Shown one piece after another: positions 35,822 through 53,800 of a DNA stretch of 64,000 nucleotides; positions within the stretch are counted from its first letter, which is position 1, and each line of letters starts with the position of its first letter. The position numbers were made by a program, and so were the translations under genes. The notes under the pieces are model-generated. The model did no database searches, was not told the DNA's origin, and saw only the letters and a list, made by a program, of their open reading frames with translations. This DNA comes from Octopus vulgaris (Eukaryota). Where the stretch lies: the NCBI GenBank assembly GCA_951406725.2, contig OX597820.1, forward strand, positions 110,484,001-110,548,000, given 5' to 3'.

Positions 35822-38800
35822 CAAGGGTTGTATAAAACCATCAAAAGCTTGTTTATTTTTATGTTTTTGATTTATTATTAGTGTTGCTTAATATGTTTTA
35901 CTAAAATTGCTGTTTCTTTTCAGATATCATCAGAAAAAGGTAATTAAAATTCATTAAAAAGACAGATCTGTCAGACTTTCAAAGAGGTCAAATTGTTGGT
36001 GCTCGTATGGAAAGCACTAGCATAATGAAAACAGCCAAAATGTTTGGTGCATCAAGAAGTACTGTCTCGAAAGTAATGTGTTATGTGGACGCCCCCAGAC
36101 GATGAAGTAGGCTAGCCCAATATGTAGATATAGAGGGAGAAGCTTAGACGTCAGTAGCACCAAAGAGCAGAGTAAGAGAGTTGAGTAGAGGTCATCCGGA
36201 CCTGCAACATAACAGTGGCAATGAAGATTTTGTAGCTCATGCAGCCACTGTGTACACTGTGTAGTATTGCAATATAACAGTGGTTAATAAGGCTTGCGAA
36301 AGGTTTAAGCTGGAAGAATTAACACCAGATATGTTCAAGTGCCTAATATTCATTAAAGGGTTTGTGGCAACGGAAGATGCGGAAATTAGAAAAAGAATAT
36401 TATCAAAGTTGAATCAAGATGTGAAACTCACTTTGCAGAATGTGGCTGAGGAATGCCAACAAATAATAAACCTTCGAGATGATACAAGAAAGATAGAAGA
36501 CAAGAATAATAATATACAAATGTGTAAAGAAAGTACAGAAAGAAGATAAAATTTAAATTCAAAACGGTGCTATGGTTGCGGAGATCAACATTTGAGGAAA
36601 GATTGCTCCTTTAAAGATAAAACCTGTTTTAAGTATGGTAAAATTGGACATATACAGACAAAATGCCGGTCAAAGAAAATGGTAAAACAGAAGAAAGACA
36701 ACTCAACACCAAAATGCAATTAGATACTGGTTCAGATGTATCGATAATAAATACGGCAGCATGGAGTAAGATAGGCAAGCCATTGTATAAAAACACTACT
36801 AGGATAGCCTGTGGTGTGTCAGGGGAATGAGTTCAATTCTTGGGAGAAATTTCTCCAGAAATAAAACTTAAAAACAGGATGTGGAAATGTAAACTAATGG
36901 TATCTAAGAATACAATGAATCTGTTCGGGACAGATTTAATGGAAGGATTCAACCTGTGGGATCTATCACTGAATACATTATGTAACAAGGTGAATGTGTC
37001 ACAGTCCATGTTAGAGAAAGCATCGGAAAAAATGAAATTAAAACTGGAAAAGATGTACCCTGATATTTTTTCGAAAGAGCTCGGTATGTGTAAAAAAATT
37101 AAAGTAAAATTTGAGTTGAAAGAAAGTGCGGTACCAGTGTTCAAACCGAAAAGGAATGTACCTTTTGCGGCATTAAATCAAGTTGAGAAGGAATTAAAAA
37201 GATTGGAAGACATGGAAGTAATTGAAAAAGTAGACTACTCTGAGTGGGCGGCTCCTACCGTATATATAAAAAAGAAGAACAACGAAGTAAGAGTATGTGT
37301 GGACTTCTCAACTGGTCTTAATGATTGTTTAAAAAATTACAATTATCCGCTTCCAAACCCAGAAGAAATATTTGCTAAGCGCAATGGTGGGAAAAAATTT
37401 TCCAAGCTGGATTTGTCAGAGACCTACCTCCAATTACTGGTAGATGAAGAATGTGCTAAAGTATTAACAATCAATACTCATAAAGGTCTGAACCGTTTCA
37501 AAAGATTACCATTTGGGGTAAAGGTCACCCCAGCAATATTTCAGCAAGTAATGGATACTATGCTAGCAGATTGTGAGTTCGCGGTCTCATACTTGGATGA
37601 CATATTGATCAAAAGTGAATCAAGGGACCAACATATTGAACATATAGAAGAGGTTTTCAAACAAATATGTGAGTACGGGTTCAAAGTAAGGGAGGATAAA
37701 TGTGAATTTTTTCTTGACAAAAACAAAGTACTTAGGACAGGTGATCGATGAAAACGGATGAAAACCGGACCCATCTAGGATCGACGCGATAAAAAAAAAA
37801 TGCCTGCTCCCACTAACAAAACAACACTACAAGCATTCTTAGGTTTGGTAAGTTATTACCAGTTGTACATACTTAAAATGTATGAGCTAAGAGCTCCATT
37901 GAATCAGTTGCTAAAGAAGGACTCAAAATGGAGCTGGACAAACGAATGTCAGAAATCATTCGAGGAATTAAAAAGCGGTTAACATCAGAGTTATCATTAA
38001 CTCATTTTGACCCAAACCTGAAAATAATTGTGGCATCGGATGCCAGTGAATATGGTGAGCTGTGATTTTGCATAAATTTGATGATGGTAAAATCAAAGCT
38101 ATTGCACATGCACCGGGAGTTCTATTACCAGTGGAAAGAAACTACAGCCAGATTGAAAAAGAGGTGTTATCATTAATCTTCGCAGTAAAAAAATTCCATA
38201 AATTCTTACATGGGAGGAAGTTTACACTGCAAACGGATCACCGACTGTTATTGTCTATTTTTGGTTTGAAAAAGGGTATCTCAATGCACTCAGCAAACCG
38301 CTTACAGCACTGGGGGACTACTCTGTTGAACTACAATTTCCAGATGGAGTTTTTGCTATCAATGAAAATGGGACACGCAGATGGGTTGTCTAGGCTGATT
38401 CCAAAATATTAGGAACCTTTTGAAGACACAGTGATTGCATCGTTAAAACTAGAAATAGAACTGGAGAACATTTTGTGTAATGTAGTATGTGATTTGCTGG
38501 TAATGCTGGAAGAAATTAAATTGAAATCGAAAAATGATAGGTTCATAAATAAGATTTTTAAAATGTTTAGTAACACAAAAAATATAAATGAGCGGGACGC
38601 AGGTTCAAAGCACTATTCAGTATGTGATGAGGTATTATTATATGCACAAAAGACTTTCATGTAGGACATTCAGGGATTGTCCGGATGAAGAGCCTTATGA
38701 GAAGTTACGTTTATTGGCCGAATATGGAAAAGCAAATTGAGAGACTGGTAAAACAGTGTAGGGGATGCGCTATGGCAGCAAAGGCGCCCCCAGTGCAGAT

Positions 38801-42328: not shown

Positions 42329-42711
42329 GAAATATGTTTCGAAAAGAAAATAGAAACTACACATGGAAAAGACATGGGGAAAGTAAGAAGAAAAATGTGT
42401 AAATGCAAATTGAATATCAAAAAAATAAAGGCATTTTTATGAAAAGTAGCGATAAATAAATACAATTAGATGAATTGTTAAAGAGATTCAAAGTCAAATC
42501 GGTATCATCATTGCTGTTCAAAAGCCAGTGAGCAGCATTTGCATTTTTGCATTTTTTTCTTACTTTAGCCATATTATCATTATTGTTTTTATGTATTTTT
42601 GTATTCTTATTCGTGTAACATCGTCTGTTTTTCCGTCCTTGTTTTGTATACATTCGAGGCTTTCTTCCAAGGAATCTAATGTGCTCGGCTTAGATTTTCC
42701 TTTGGGGCTGG

Positions 42712-42787
42712 CCAGATCGGAGCAATCTCAAGATTAATCAGCCGAAATTGCGAGGATGATCCAGTTCTTGACTGAAGATTGAAGGCT
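42712..42787 (+). ncRNA. Non-circularly permuted hammerhead candidate, family A copy 1
   Basis: GCAA-TC-TCAAGA (42722-33) ... GAAA-TTGC (42744-51) ... TCTTGA-CTGAAGA (42766-78); stems III and I perfectly complementary. Confidence 0.65.
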
Positions 42788-42989: not shown

Positions 42990-43012
42990 TATATATATGC
43001 ATATATATAAAG

Positions 43013-43136
<124 letters not shown>

Positions 43137-43139
43137 ATA

Positions 43140-44396
43140 TATATAAATTAAATTAGAGATAAAACCACTATTAGGCAAATCAAACGGTGAAAGACATAAA
43201 CCAAAACATAGAAATAAAATTAATTAATATAATATACAAAATAAATAAAATATAAAATTTAAATTTTAAATTTTAAATTTATATTTATAAATTTTTATAT
43301 TTTTATATTTTTTGAATTTTAAATTTATAAACTTTTAATTTAATTTTTAAATTTTTTAATTAATTAATTTTTTTTTATATCAAAAAGTATTAAAAAGTTT
43401 AATATAATATAAGTAAAACCACTACGTACGTTTCATAGCCATAATTCAATGCAAATTACAATTAATTTAAATTCAATTAAAAATTCGAATTATAATTATA
43501 GTCAATCTTCAGGTTAATGATAATAGTTAAATAAATAAGCAAACAGATTTAAACAATATATTTTAAGAAATAGATAAAATAATAATTTTTCTTGTAAAAA
43601 GCTCTATTATCAAATTAGAAACTTAAACCATTAGGATTATGTCATACAACCCAATTATTATGTTAAATATTAATTTTTAAGGTAAAAAAATAGATAGAAA
43701 AATGTATTTATCTATTAAGATATAATATGGCTTTAAAAAACATAATAAACTCACAAATATCCTAAACTCATTTATAGTCAATATGTAATTACCAAATTAT
43801 TTAACAAAATAATCACTATTCATATTTTTAAATTTAAGTTCAAATCTAATAATTATAAAATATTTAAGAATAATAACTAAATTATTATCAATAAATATAA
43901 TAATTAAGATCTAAAATTTACTCTATCAATAAATATATAGACATATAATGAAAACTAAATAAATTAATTAGTCCATTATTACTTACGTAAATATTAAATA
44001 TTAATGTAATATTTTTATGAAATATATTAAAAAATTAAGGATGAAAAAGCAAATTATAAATGAAAAACCTATCTTAAAAGAACCGTATAACTATTTAACG
44101 TTCTATATATTTCGTTGGCTAAATAATAACTTACAAATAACATATAGTTATAATCTAATAATGAAATACATATCTTCAACAACTAAATAATTATACAATC
44201 AAATTAACAATCAGTAGTTATATAGTATCCAATATAATGCAATATAACATAAATTATTAAAATAACTTTAATAAAAAGGTTTACTTAGCTTTCAAAACTC
44301 GTGTCATTAACTAAATTTATAATAAACAGATGGAAAATTCTTTTAACAATGAAAACTACGAATATATTTTATCAATGAAAATTACTAATAAATATT

Positions 44397-44400
<4 letters not shown>
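43140..44400 (-). repeat. Extremely AT-rich Penelope-type UTR/terminal repeat remnant with hammerhead-like motif at 43419-43517
   Basis: Minus strand ac-CTGAAGA-(ttgactataatt...aattatggctat)-GAAA-CGTACG-TA-gt; flanked by (TA)n. Confidence 0.5.
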
Positions 44401-44433
<33 letters not shown>

Positions 44434-44435
44434 AT

Positions 44436-45115
44436 ACAGCAATGCTTGATCTGTAGAAAAAGCGTAGGTAGTAGCTCCATAAGATGCACCCAATGTAAGC
44501 TTTGAACACATTAAAGGTACAGCAATATCAGAGGAAAGCTAAGAAGGAAAATACCTTTTATATGTGGAAGATGCACAGGTACAAAAAACACTGAAATTGG
44601 GTAGAAAATAGACTCCATCAACTGCCAGGCAGGGAAGCTAGTGGCAGTAAATAGTTTCTGTTATCTAGGTGACCAAGTTAGTAGCAGAGTTGAATGCTCC
44701 AAGTGTGTACTCGTGAAAATTATATTAGGCTGGACAAAGTTTAGAGAGATCCTACCTCTACTCTCAGAGTGAAAGTCAAATTGTATGATGCTTGTTTGCA
44801 TACAGCTATGCTACATGGCAGTGAAACATGGGCTGTGATAGCTGAGGACATGTGTAGGCTTGAAAGAAATGAAGCCAGTATGCTTTGCTGGATGTGCAAT
44901 GTAAGTGTGCATGTTTGACAGAGTGTAAGCATCTTGAGAGAAAAATTACACACAAGGGGCATCAGATGTGATGTGCAAGAGAGACAACTGCACTGGTATG
45001 GTCATGTGATGCATATGGACAAGGACAGTTGTGTAAAGAAGTGCCAATCACTAACTGTGGAGAGAACCTGTGGTAGAGATAGACCCAGGAAGACATGGGA
45101 TGAGGTGGTGAAGAA
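44436..45115 (+). mobile_element. RTE LINE fragment with PHD-like finger before RT motif 7
   Basis: CLIC..CTQC...H..(Y)..CGRC, then VNSFCYLG, MLHGSETW, LHWYGHV, RPRKTW. Confidence 0.85.
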
Positions 45116-45176
45116 TGTGTGTGTGTGTATGTATGGAATCTAATGCGATTGGCTTAGATTTCCCTTGGCGGGCTGC

Positions 45177-45252
45177 CCAGATTGGAGCAATCTCAAGATT
45201 AATCAGCCGAAATTGCGAAGATGATCTGGTTCTTGACTGATGACTGAGAGCT
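45177..45252 (+). ncRNA. Non-circularly permuted hammerhead candidate, family A copy 2
   Basis: GCAA-TC-TCAAGA (45187-98), GAAA-TTGC (45209-16), TCTTGA-CTGATGA (45231-43); within a repeat 45135-45325 homologous to 42671-42860. Confidence 0.7.
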
Positions 45253-45332
45253 TTGAAAGTCCCGTCTGTGTGTTTTTTTGTCGTCTTCAAAATGTTTCAC
45301 GTTCTTGTCCCAGTTTGTGTTTTTTTAACGTT

Positions 45333-45500
45333 TGGGCATGGCTGTGTGGTTAGGGAGCTTCCTTCCTAGCTACATGGTTTCGGGTTCAGTCCCACTGCGT
45401 GGCACTTTGGGTAGGTGTCTTTCACTATAGCCCCGAGCTGACCGGAGCTTTGTGATTGAATTCGGTAGGTGGAAGTTACTGCCGTGTGTGTATATGTGCG
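45333..45500 (+). mobile_element. SINE 5' half
   Basis: tggctgtgtggt A box, gggttcagtcccactgcgtggca B box. Confidence 0.75.
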
Positions 45501-45890
45501 TGTAGGTGCTTGTGCCTCTCCGAAAGAGAGAGAGAGGGATATATAATATGAATAATATATATATATATATATATTGTTGTATTTAGGAACGGTCATTTTG
45601 CCAGTTTAGCCAATAAAAACACACGCACTATATATTTGGTGTTACTTTGCTTCAGCGTTATTTGCTTTTTACATTAATCTTAATCTTATTTTGGCCAGAG
45701 TTTTATTGGATAAACTGGCAAAATGACCATTCCTAAATACAACAATATCTGTTTCAACACACGATTTCACATAAAAAATCTTGCACATGAGAACCTCAAT
45801 AGCATACATATATATCTTATAATTCAATACATATAAGATAAGAATACAAGTTATAAAAATCAATACAAATTATTGAAATCATTAAAATCA

Positions 45891-46036
45891 CTCCTTACAG
45901 CTGTTTCAGCCTATGGCTAAAAGTATTTATTTTTATTTTTATTGCCTATAGTTGTCAACATAATGATGTTGTAGGCATTTAAAAATATGGTACTTATATA
46001 TATAACCATAGGCCTCGTCAGAGGTTATAAGGAACT
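45891..46036 (-). ncRNA. Type I hammerhead ribozyme motif with long stem II insert
   Basis: cct-CTGACGA-Ggcctatgg...ccataggcT-GAAA-CAGCTG-TA-agg; intact core, palindromic stem III. Partial second copy at ~46776-46794. Confidence 0.78.
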
Positions 46037-46453
46037 TTAAAAATATTAATATTAATACATTAAACATGATACATGTATTATTTAATATAAATAAATATAT
46101 ACATATAAAATATGAACAAATATCCATATAGACATATACATTTATACACATATACATACATAAGCAAAGTGTATGGACTTTTACGAGTGTAAAATACATA
46201 AATAAACACAATTAAACAATAGGTCCAAGTAGATATACCACACATCATATACATATATATACATATATTGGAACATATAAACATGTCTATGCTTAAGACC
46301 AGATAAATAATAATCAAATATTAACAATAATATTATTATCATTATTACGTATTAAGAATCTGGGTACTTTACCAACAGTATATTGGATAAATACTATCCC
46401 ATAGTGGGTTACACCCATAACCCATATCTTACTTTGTATATATATATAATATA

Positions 46454-46504
<51 letters not shown>

Positions 46505-47253
46505 TATATATATACATACATATATGTGCATACATATATATGTGTATATATATATATATACATACAAAATAAGAAAATGGAGAAATACATCTAAATCAAT
46601 TATCAACTACCAGATAATACCCAATCACATACTTTATTAAACCACTACATATGAACATTAAGGTCAAACATAATAACATAGAACAAAACAGTGTACATGA
46701 AGGAGTAATATGATACAATAAGTACAATATGTATAAGAGAATATAAATAAATATAAATATAAATATAAACTACATCTTACAGCTGTTTCGGCCATGCAGA
46801 TATGGGTGTCTCATTTTACTTATATTAGCCATGTGCGATAGGTCAAAAGTATGTGATTGGGTACTATCTGGTAGTTGATAATTGACTTAGATGTATTTCT
46901 CCATTTTCTTATTTTGTATTATTAATTTGTGGTAAAACATTTTACCTTTGCCCATATAATACAGTAAATGAATTAATTGCATCGCAATTCTTAACATTTG
47001 TTGGGTACTTAACTTTGTTGGGTACTTCACTAGCAGTATATTGGATATATGTTATCCCATGGAGGGTTGCATTTACAACCCCTATCTCAATTTGTATATA
47101 CATACATATATATATATATGCATATATGGATACAGGTTGTCACAAAGTGTAAACAACATGAAATACAAAAATAACATGAAATACGAAGACAAACTTGGGT
47201 ATGCAAACAATGGGAGAAACAAATGGAAAACAAAGCAAGTAACATAAAGAACG

Positions 47254-47332
47254 ACCCTTCATCAGTTGTCAGCTGTCCATCAACTCCCCATTTCAAGCAA
47301 TTAATGACAATGTGAGGCTTTAAAAGGCAGTT
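47254..47332 (-). ncRNA. Non-circularly permuted hammerhead candidate, family B (cleavage-site U replaced by C)
   Basis: CCTCA-CA-TTGTC ... GCTT-GAAA-TGGGG ... GACAA-CTGATGA-A-GGGT. Confidence 0.55.
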
Positions 47333-47630
47333 GCTTCCGCGAGCCAAAATAAAATTTGGGATTTTGTGGAGAGTCAAAGTTGGTAATAAAAACAGGACTG
47401 TGGAGGCAGTAAATTTATAAACCAAATGAAAACAAACATGGAGGGCTATTAGGCCAGATGAGGTAAAGTAGCAAACACTGGAGGAATATTGTCTTTGACA
47501 AGAGAAAAGATAGAAGAGAAGGCAGATAAGAATGCGTCTGGTCTGTGAGACAGACTGAAAGATGATCATGTGAGGAACAGAAAGATGGACGATGATCATG
47601 TGTGAGCAAGAAAGAAAGTAAAGGAGATAG

Positions 47631-50871: not shown

Positions 50872-53800
50872 CCCTCCACCATTCAGATTACTCTGTCAAC
50901 TGCAATGCTTTTTATTCACATTGCTTTGAATCAACCATGCATCATCTCATAGCTTTGAGATTCTGATGATGTGATTGTTTATTCTTAGAAAGACATTATA
51001 GGCTAGGTGTGAGAGGGTAGATCTGACCAGTTTGAACATATAATGGAATGGAAGGTTTATGATACCTGTGGAGTATCTCCTTCTTCCATTATAATTATTT
51101 TTGTAGTTTCAAGGATCTGGAACACAAAGAAGAAGTTCACAAGTGGAGTACAGTTCAATAGCCGTTTATTCACAGAGTTCTCGTTTGTGTGGTTTGTTCT
51201 CACTGACCATCTTTATAGCAGCGTGTGATTTGTTTTAACTCCGTACACGTGAGGTTCATTATCTCTGGAGATAAGCATGTGGAGTCAGAGTGAGACAAGA
51301 GTCTGCTGTGAGCTGTTGGCTTTGCAGTGTTTCTCAGTGTTGAGCATGAGAGGAGTGAGAGAGTGAATGTCGGGGTTTCTTGCTTAAATACTGGTTGTCG
51401 GTGAGAATCTTGTTGTTGTCTCACACATGGCAAATGGTTGCAGGCGAGATCTTGTTCTTGTCTCACACATGGCAATAGCTACTGGCAAGATTTCATTCAA
51501 AATGGCGCTGGCTTCTTGTGTCTTGCTACAGGGTCTGCCCCCTGAGAATGTTAGTGTGTAAATAGAAAATAACTGGAGCAGGCACAAGAAAAGAGCAAAG
51601 ATGGTAACCAATCACAAACAACAAGATATGGTACAAAATGTGACAAGTCAAAAGAAAATAATTACAAGAAATATAAATGGGCATGCACAAAATTTTGACA
51701 AAATGTTCAATGGCAAAGCATTGGAAATGTTCAGCAACACAAGAAAGCAATTGTCTGTCACAGGAAACGCAAAAGAGGTTGTCAGATATAAATAGTTCTG
51801 GTGAGTTTTCTGGGCAATGCACAGTATGGCCTGTACTGGTTACATAAGGTTTGTTTGGTGTGGTCAAAGGTGCATGTGCAGGTGGATATGTAGGTGGTTG
51901 TAAAGAATCAAAAGTGGGCGTGGCTGGAGTGTCATCGAAGGGTGTGAAAACCTCAAAATGTGCCTTTTTAAGACTGTCGACTGACACGGTCTCTGCCCGA
52001 CCATTGATGTCGAGACTAAAAGTTTTGGGTGTGCACGATAGCATACAAAATGATCCTTTATAGGGAGAAATGAGCGATCCTCTGACAGAATCATCCTGAA
52101 CAAAAACATGAGTCCATTTGTCAATGTCTGGTGGGACATGAGAAGGAATAGATTGGTCACACAGATGTATGGATGGAAGACTCAAGAAATATGAGCAAAG
52201 TCTAGTGACATACGATGTTGGACCAGGATGTGATGAATTGTCTGGCACTAACATTGTACCAGGAAGTACCAGGGTGGTACCGTAAAGGAATTCGGTGGAG
52301 AAGAAACTGAAGTCTGTCTTAACAGTAGTGTGGCAACCAAGAACGATAGGCAGGAATTCTGTCCAAGACTGCAGATCAGGAGTGGCATGTAGAGTGGCCT
52401 TCTGTTGCCTGTAAAAACGTTCGACCATCCCATTGGAGGCTGGGTGGTAGCTGATCATACAAATGTGATGAACGCCTAGGATTCGTGATAATTCACGAAA
52501 TAAGGAAGTTTCGAACTGGTGCCCATGATCAGTGGTTATTTTAGCTGGGACACCAAAATGATTAATCCAGTTAGAAATGAAAGCTCGAGCAACTGACTCG
52601 GTGGAAATGTCCACTATTGGAATGGCCTCTGGCCAATGAGAGAAACAATCGACGCATGTCAATATGTAAGAGAAACCATGACTGACAGGCCATGGTCCAA
52701 CCAGATCAATGTGGACATGGCAAAGGCGAGTCTCTGGCAGAGAAAACTGTCCAAGAGGAGTGTGAATGTGCCTGTGGATTTTAGAATGCTGGCATTTCAC
52801 ACAAAAGCGTGCTCAAGCGGTGATCATCAAGTGCATATTAGGCCAGAAAAACCGAGCCGTAATTAAGCTTCACTGAGGCAGCAATGCCAGAATGTGACAT
52901 GAATGCAAGGCATCAAAAATGGAACACTGGTGGTACAAACGGTCTTGGAGAACCAGTAGCTGTGTCACAAAGGATTGTGCCTTCAGCAGATGGAAGTGGA
53001 AGATAGGCAAACTTGCAACAGGACAACTTGGTACAAGTTAGATCCAATGTGTCCATAGCTGGCTGATCCTGTGCAATGGCAGTTAAATTGATTGCAGCAG
53101 GAGATGAAAGAGAACACACAGGGAGATAAGAGAGTATGTCAGCAGGTACGTTCTCTGTTCCAAGTATATGCTGAATGTTACTCGTGAACTGGGAATAGTA
53201 GTCCAGGAGATGAAAAACATGAGGTGAGTGTTTGTCCGATTTACATGACAGAGCAAACATAAGAGGTTTGTGATAAGTATAAATCACAAAATCTCAGCCC
53301 TCAAGTTGATGTTGAAAATGACGAACCGACAGGTAGATTGTTTAGAGTTCATGATCAAACATAGTGTAACGACATTCAGCTGGCTTTAATTGATGAGAAA
53401 AAACATGCCAAAGGTCAAGCGTGGTTATCGATGGTATGTTGTAAAGCAACACCAACAGCAGAATCCCATGCATCAACTGTTAAAGAGAGACAAACATCAG
53501 GAACCGGATGTGCAAGCAAAGGAAAAGAAGCTATTTTTCTTCTTGGTTAGCTCAAAAGAAGATAATGCCTTGGCTGATAGAGTGATAGGAGAATTTTTTG
53601 ATTTATTTGCATTCAGTAGTTGAGTCAGGGGAGGTAACTTGTTTGCACATTTAAGTATGAATCTCCTGTAGAAGTTGACAATTCCCAAGAAGTGAGGCAG
53701 TTGACGTAAAGAAGTTGGAGGTGAGATGCATTGAATTGCATCGACTTTTGAGGAGAGAGGTCGGATACCATTAGAGTCAATATAATGAAGTAGGAATTCC

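Follow-up and report, generated by a model that had tools for sequence, protein, structure and literature searches.

A Candidate Kink-Turn Hammerhead Ribozyme Split at A9/G10.1 in a Likely Naiad-Type Repeat of Octopus vulgaris

Introduction

The closest described relatives of the RNA presented here are the permuted hammerheads of Eckert et al. (2023; PMC10085705), in which three blocks, S, G, and C, assumed to be uninterruptible, occur in six permutations. In the text of that paper available to us, types SGC and CSG were validated by cleavage assays (CSG-1 and CSG-2 co-transcriptionally); CSG is known from two unique sequences of soil metagenomes and SGC from metatranscriptomes and metagenome searches, none of them from the genomes of known organisms, among which one GCS candidate in a bacterium is the sole source of permuted types. 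CSG-1 runs from a joining helix through stem I-CUGAUGA-stem II, the joining helix again, and stem III-site-stem I to a UUAA linker followed by stem II-GAAA-stem III. That paper leaves open how stem III is brought, at its far end, to the I/II helix, and neither "kink" nor "k-turn" occurs in the main text.

A second set of relatives comes from Penelope-like elements (PLEs). Minimal PLE hammerheads need dimers formed through a short palindromic stem III, and the link between positions 9 and 10.1 tolerates an extra base, 1-nt insertions being the only interruption documented in the accessible parts of these sources (PMC4209133; bioRxiv 10.64898/2026.07.22.740005). A cut-and-circularise model has been proposed for other PLEs (Cervera and de la Pena 2014, PMC4209133). 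Naiad PLEs, which are TA-targeted, form tandem and inverted copies, and occur in Octopus, are described in the available text of Craig et al. (2021, PMC8557442) as devoid of canonical hammerheads, with "core" or "half-core" flags only.

Here we analyze a window of Octopus vulgaris DNA (the whole stretch of 64,000 nt) which, with a probability of about 0.82, encodes a predicted self-cleaving hammerhead close to the 3' terminus of what is probably a non-autonomous PLE of Naiad type. Its strands begin with the 5' strand of stem II, followed by one strand of the k-turn helix, the cleavage site, GAAA, the other strand of the k-turn helix, and CUGANGA.

Strands of the Motif in the Window

A first-pass annotation made from the letters of the window had reported all three hammerhead strands in the order site, GAAA, CUGA, with perfect stems I and III, a short linker from stem I to stem II and a cut 3' of C45192. 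Each strand was found where it had been placed, in a ribozyme copy at 45135-~45333 whose stem I (6 bp) and stem III (5 bp) are both perfect; the predicted position of cleavage is upheld. The annotated span, 45177..45252, takes in the core strands and leaves out what we now identify as the 5' strand of stem II. The features, all on the forward strand, are:

45135..45333 (+): 5'-truncated copy of a non-coding, TA-targeted tandem repeat, family F1 (from repeat comparison)
45135..45168 (+): rest of a conserved hairpin just 5' of the ribozyme
45171..45175 (+): 5' strand of stem II, GGCUG, with G10.1 at 45171 and no covalent join to A9 (from pairing across families)
45177..45186 (+): non-bulged strand of the k-turn, with the 5' strand of the NC helix, G3n (45184) and G2n-A1n (45185-86)
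45187..45192 (+): stem III strand GCAA and U16.1 at 45191 (GCAAU, 45187-91), then C17 at 45192; predicted cut between 45192 and 45193
45193..45198 (+): stem I strand UCAAGA, positions 1.1-1.6
45199..45203 (+): linker from stem I to stem II, UUAAU
45204..45208 (+): 3' strand of stem II, CAGCC, with C11.1 at 45208
45209..45216 (+): G12-A13-A14-A15.1 (GAAA, 45209-12) and stem III strand UUGC (45213-16)
45217..45229 (+): bulged strand of the k-turn, with GAA bulge (45217-19), G1b-A2b (45220-21), U3b, and the 3' strand of the NC helix (GAUCUGG, 45223-29)
45231..45243 (+): stem I strand UCUUGA (45231-36) and core CUGAUGA, C3-A9 (45237-43)
45255..45266 (+): second GAAA and conserved GWCCCGUC block, a possible competing helix
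42671..42862 (+): second copy in the window, family F2, 87% identical, with its ribozyme at ~42706-42778 and N7 = A

The ribozyme part of the F1 copy is identical to most F1 copies fetched. A descriptor of this layout was run on the window, on the locally shuffled window (2.54 Mb), and on 120 real loci plus the window. It matches both window copies (G12 at 45209 and 42744), gave a single match in the 2.54 Mb of shuffled sequence, and found 95 matches in the 120 loci plus window, two of them weak and outside the families. The proposal that the strand order is none of types I-III agrees with the Rfam search of window 43000-47500, in which the hammerhead family had no match at E ≤ 10, and with the lack of conservation of the second GAAA. 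The minimum-free-energy fold of the motif does not recover the predicted structure (z=+0.57), a miss to be expected of a nested fold, since five of the six helix pairs cross. Downstream of the core, the conserved block GWCCCGUC (45259-45266) is able to pair with the G-run over G10.1. In F1 this gives the helix GGCGGG/CCCGUC (-8.9 kcal/mol), which takes up bases of stem II (-6.8) and, after transcription of the tail, may slow cleavage.

Conservation across Five Repeat Families and the Position of Stem II

Copies of the motif in the 2.8-Gb genome (first search: 1,663 first-look candidates, 40 of them scored) were assigned to families F1 to F5. The related families F1-F4 came from successive searches, with 30 loci fetched for each, chosen by likeness to the query, and majority bases were taken per family from 30 (F1), 30 (F2), 31 (F3), 30 (F4), and 49 (F5) copies. 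On this majority basis, every pair of stem I (6/6), of an upstream stem II (5/5), and of stem III (5/5) is Watson-Crick in every family, and the core CUGANGA/GAAA/UH is invariant in all five, positions N7 and H17 excepted. The alignment-based pair count covers stems I-III of F1-F4; because MAFFT misaligned F5 against F1-F4, all five families were counted on anchored columns. Among 12 F1-F4 copies, hand-picked as fairly intact out of 121, 99% of cells in stems I-III are paired and both partners have changed in 8 of the 16 pairs, as against 16-45% pairing in slid controls for the same copies. F1-F3 being close kin, independent compensatory events are fewer than these cell counts and correspond to the changes between families. 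The covariation across genomic copies that the first-pass annotation had named as a check is present: compensatory changes preserve the pairing of stems I and III, and the core is conserved.

The strand that precedes GAAA pairs with a strand 38 nt upstream, as GGCUG/CAGCC in F1-F3, GGGCA/UGCCC in F4, and GACACC/GGUGUC in F5. In the F1-F4 alignment this upstream stem II is 98% paired with three compensatory pairs, and with it stems I, II, and III all abut the core with covariation. Hammerheads carry an R10.1-Y11.1 pair at the base of stem II, usually G-C. The upstream stem II opens with G10.1-C11.1, a G-C pair, in all five families.

The first-pass annotation had drawn stem II from bases after CUGAUGA, either as UCAG/CUGA (with a CC bulge) or as AGC with GCU, which would make the RNA a plain type-SGC hammerhead. 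This reading leaves the link between A9 and stem II unbroken, as is the case for every type described in the available text of PMC10085705, and UCAG/YUGA does pair in F1 and F2; yet the first pairing holds in 58% of cells with no compensatory pairs (F1-F4) and is broken in F3, F4, and F5, and the second, in the register examined, has its downstream GCU/GGCU broken in four of five families. Neither supplies G10.1-C11.1, and their predicted duplex energies are -2.0 and -0.9 kcal/mol against -6.8 for the upstream stem. Stem II in registers directly contiguous with the core failed in all five families, and a continuation of A9 by stem II after an insertion of 0-2 nt was not found across the families. 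We therefore regard the plain SGC reading as scarcely likely. We also considered a canonical type I/III reading built on the second GAAA (45255-58): CUGAUGA, a weak 3-bp hairpin, and GAAAGUC do stand in canonical order in F1, but the second GAAA reads GAAU in F2-F4, which places it outside the core, it is absent from F5, and stems I and III cannot form, so that the probability of this fold is practically negligible.

We thus retain the upstream stem II. Because its 5' strand lies upstream of the core, A9 is not joined to G10.1, and the RNA would therefore enter and leave the core at that point. Block C is consequently split, which distinguishes the predicted fold from plain type SGC and makes it a circular permutation of type CSG.

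The Kink-Turn

Stem III had been thought to be extended by a k-turn, and the pattern is present in the window: a 3-nt bulge and tandem G.A/A.G pairs, flanked by C and NC helices. Both the tandem pairs and the bulge are invariant in the five families. As in the standard kink-turn (PMC5061560, PMC4382518; available text), the bulge is followed by G.A and A.G between two helices, and here the element sits inside a small predicted self-cleaving ribozyme. The 3b.3n pair is U.G, C.C, or U.U depending on the family. By the rule given in the accessible part of PMC4382518, folding in ions goes with 3n=G or 3b=C; F1-F3 (3n=G) and F4 (3b=C) follow it, whereas F5, with U.U, does not. The NC helix of F2 contains one C.A mismatch.

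Comparison with Published Permuted Hammerheads

The NC helix of the window k-turn corresponds to the helix that joins stems I and II in types SGC and CSG. As far as the accessible text of PMC10085705 describes them, CSG-1 and the window RNA have identical connections, and both have a UUAA linker (also found in CSG-2) and G10.1-C11.1; the order stem II 5' strand, joining helix, S, linker, G is that of CSG. They differ in where the chain ends. In CSG these ends lie between stem III and the joining helix and the CUGANGA-stem II block is intact, whereas in the window RNA the bulged strand of the k-turn links the points that are ends in CSG, the chain is open after A9, CUGANGA is 3'-terminal, and no intact block C stands at the 5' end. 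Since the connections are those of CSG-1, opened after A9, we infer that the window RNA is a circular permutation within the SGC/GCS/CSG class at a fourth opening. Type SGC (HRIMA-1 and variants, same source) likewise shows the order site, GAAA, CUGANGA, a short linker from stem I to stem II, and a helix joining the other ends of these stems; its stem II follows directly after CUGAUGA(U), and its descriptor CUGAUGA(U)G does not fit the window RNA.

The minimal type I PLE hammerheads and non-LTR retrozymes resemble the window family in having a hammerhead in a terminal repeat and tandem non-autonomous units, but in the available descriptions they have the canonical C-G-S order and, unlike the window RNA, neither pseudoknots nor a k-turn. 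Our literature search, for which most subscription journals were out of reach, returned no published hammerhead opened at A9/G10.1, no permuted hammerhead in Naiads or animal genomes, and no natural hammerhead with a k-turn; permuted Naiad hammerheads are not mentioned in the part of the retrozyme preprint (bioRxiv 10.64898/2026.07.22.740005) accessible to us.

The Repeat Element and Its Copies

Genome-wide, 2,901 sites match exactly a 32-letter pattern taken from the core of F1-F3 (control pattern, 0). Copies end at a common 3' end ~90 nt after CUGAUGA, are 5'-truncated, and sit in (TA)n; head-to-tail arrays have units of ~720-820 nt (five units in locus L199), and inverted pairs occur in L028, L039, and L044. 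The retroelement context proposed from the window alone is borne out by these TA-targeted, 5'-truncated, tandem copies. The sequence common to F1-F4 stops within ~0.9 kb; the repeat is non-coding and ~0.7-0.9 kb long. No autonomous ORF lies upstream of F1-F4 within the 1.5-kb flanks of 120 loci, and the F1-F4 shared sequence lacks an ORF with N-terminal GIY-YIG, CxC, and C-terminal RT. F1-F4 are therefore a derivative or parasite rather than an autonomous Naiad member.

Four of 24 sequencing runs guessed to be RNA were compared, as assembled contigs. In one run contig, position 2520 is followed by 1700, as would be seen equally with a circle and with a tandem in the genome. Contig depth peaks over the ribozyme (L015:2372-2427) in all four runs compared, with loose ends on both sides, which suggests that more repeat families share the ribozyme core.

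At the unit start (L015:1709-1941; also L030 and L199), a donor-like GTAAGT is followed by a long pyrimidine tract and, in L015 and L030, by an acceptor-like CAG, a layout that resembles the 5' UTR intron of Penelope elements; no joint matching a spliced unit-start intron was present in the contigs of the four runs. Another repeat family contains, at L015:975-1005, a canonical minimal Penelope-type hammerhead-like motif, made of the core, an extra A, a 4-bp stem II, GAAA, and a short palindrome, with the first core positions off-consensus in this copy.

Relation to Naiad Elements

The window family shares with the Naiad PLEs of PMC8557442 (available text) the (TA)n targets, 5' truncation, and tandem and inverted copies, and differs from them in being non-coding and 0.7-0.9 kb long. 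Read by eye, the 3' ends of Naiad_Obim and Naiad_Ovul have the window-type architecture with a k-turn and different stems. A 16-mer from this motif has 449 exact matches in the genome (control, 0), which define family F5; its Naiad label rests on the match to Naiad_Ovul/Obim. The ribozyme architecture at the 3' end is thus common to Naiad_Obim/Ovul, F5, and the window family. In L196 and L198, broken reverse-transcriptase frames precede F5 on its own strand at a distance of ~0.8-1.2 kb; a 292-aa frame upstream of F5 matches RVT_1 (Pfam) at E=2e-4, under the curated cut-off, and three longer F5 stretches contain no endonuclease (GIY-YIG) domain. The window family lacks an ORF, and what links it to F5 is the fold, so that its mobilization by Naiads is an indirect deduction. 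The F5 copies in L123 and L137 (~1500) share an identical start after TTACAG, just before the 3' strand of stem II, which could be a splice acceptor or a shared truncation.

Naiad consensi were surveyed by eye at the places listed for CCGAAA (the first 60 of 87), CTGATGA (60 of 62), CTGAGGA (25 of 25), CTGACGA (23 of 23), and CTGAAGA (30 of 43), and at six 3' ends; such searches miss motifs split by line ends or with other 11.x bases. Among the matches listed, at least 18 of 54 consensi end in the split form (11) or in intact CSG (7), all 18 with different stems as judged by eye. The split forms come from three Acropora, two Octopus, and one Euprymna entry and from five among the ctenophore, cnidarian, and arthropod entries, these five placed by file position only; one of the 11 has a 2-bp stem I. 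The seven intact-CSG consensi are all nematode, by name or file position. No such motif was seen in the other 36 of 54 consensi, among the matches listed in these limited searches by eye, nor by eye in the bivalve part of the file. Spider, ostracod, and hemichordate consensi, whose CUGANGA contexts are unclear by eye, were excluded from the 18; those of spiders and ostracods (Craig 2021 File S5, parts 16-19) contain CCCCUGACGA or CCCCUGAAGA motifs with GAAA nearby, and these arrangements may be further hammerhead wirings.

Outside Octopus, the bend of the Naiad forms consists of a bulge, an extra hairpin, or possibly a reversed k-turn; several split forms have no k-turn, and in one, almost straight, the III-X helix is nearly continuous. 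The k-turn is thus one of several bending solutions among Naiads, conserved in the Octopus vulgaris families.

A near-straight III-X helix, as in some Naiad forms, would be difficult to close in a single molecule, which raises the alternative that activity requires a dimer or successive tandem units, two copies together forming stem II or the X helix. Head-to-tail arrays are indeed present, and such activity is described for other PLE hammerheads in the accessible parts of PMC4209133 and bioRxiv 10.64898/2026.07.22.740005. On the other hand, stem III of the window RNA is a full 5-bp, non-palindromic helix, a k-turn is sensible only in a compact monomer, and CSG-1/2 were validated by co-transcriptional cleavage (PMC10085705, available text). 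We consider an obligatory dimer very unlikely.

Truncated Copies and the Predicted Cut

In the fold that we favor, the k-turn would fold the arm of stem III back and bring its far end to those of stems I and II; this bend and the 5-nt linker would together replace the contact between loops I and II. The RNA would then cut 3' of C45192, and cutting of tandem or read-through transcripts would yield unit-length RNAs, to be copied by a Naiad reverse transcriptase from a fixed 3' end. Cut linear RNA should give copies starting at or just 3' of the cut, and uncut or religated RNA should give longer copies and head-to-tail arrays.

The 5' starts of TA-flanked copies were counted on minus-strand rows, each locus once, with anchors that differ between counts. 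With one anchor, 54 loci start in the 13 positions upstream of the predicted cut and 74 exactly at U45193; with other anchors, 630 starts fall in 45179-45209 and 34 in the 13 positions 45217-45229. Among the matches listed, 26 distinct loci, read by eye, comprise one that starts upstream, five at the cut, and 20 within 45195-45208, six of the 20 at 45202, an AT microhomology. The starts thus pile up over 16 nt 3' of the cut. The sharp 5' edge of this distribution at the predicted cut is indirect evidence, and fits a template cleaved in vivo. With five starts at the cut and six at 45202, part of the pile-up may come from TA microhomology and from stalling of the reverse transcriptase, for which stem II is a possible site. 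Copies that extend past the predicted cut outnumber those that stop there, and uncut or religated RNA is therefore copied as well.

These distributions also bear on the possibility that the motif is a conserved pseudoknotted protein-binding structure (a signal for recognition or stalling of the reverse transcriptase), derived from a hammerhead and no longer cutting in its present wiring. The breadth of the pile-up, which includes the stem II strand, the many copies reverse-transcribed through the site, and the U.U pair of F5 at 3b.3n, with neither 3n=G nor 3b=C (rule in the accessible part of PMC4382518), would agree with it. However, the families differ at N7, at H17, and in all stems but not at the catalytic positions, and the starts have their sharp 5' edge at the predicted cut, where the template-strand partners are already unwound. 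A non-cutting structure therefore appears unlikely, and a self-cleaving hammerhead remains our preferred reading.

Implications

Taken beyond the window, the comparisons make it quite probable that Naiads of several animal phyla carry active, pseudoknotted hammerheads of the CSG class, including the fourth opening, inside the CUGANGA-stem II block, with a natural k-turn as hinge. Naiads would then be the main natural home of non-circularly permuted ribozymes, truncated copies would record cleavage in vivo, and in circular or tandem RNA the whole element would be an insertion between A9 and G10.1. If so, a gap in Craig et al. (2021, PMC8557442; available text), where Naiads seem to be without the hammerhead that other PLEs carry, would be closed, non-circularly permuted hammerheads would pass from rare metagenomic sequences to high-copy animal retroelements, and the scheme of three blocks and six permutations in the accessible text of Eckert et al. 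(2023, PMC10085705) would be broken. The sharp bend may also answer the question, left open in that text, of how stem III meets the I/II helix. Experiments could then address what cleavage does in PLE retrotransposition, and RNA switches could readily be built on a hammerhead whose free ends lie at A9/G10.1 and whose k-turn proteins can bind.

Other Sequences in the Window

A decayed fragment (44780-45115) lies directly upstream of the ribozyme copy. By eye, it resembles the C-terminal part of an RTE-type LINE. Directly after the copy comes a SINE-like repeat (45334-45480), with relatives of 75-79% identity at 16576, 20649, 3937, and 57651, and farther on an inverted repeat of ~177 nt (45571-45747), MITE-like, which has a weak match to MIR4208 under the gathering score. 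Outside microsatellite tracts, ORFs are found at 5730-7592 (+, 620 aa), 13127-14677 (-, 516 aa), 51526-52812 (-, 428 aa), and 36831-37751 (+, 306 aa).
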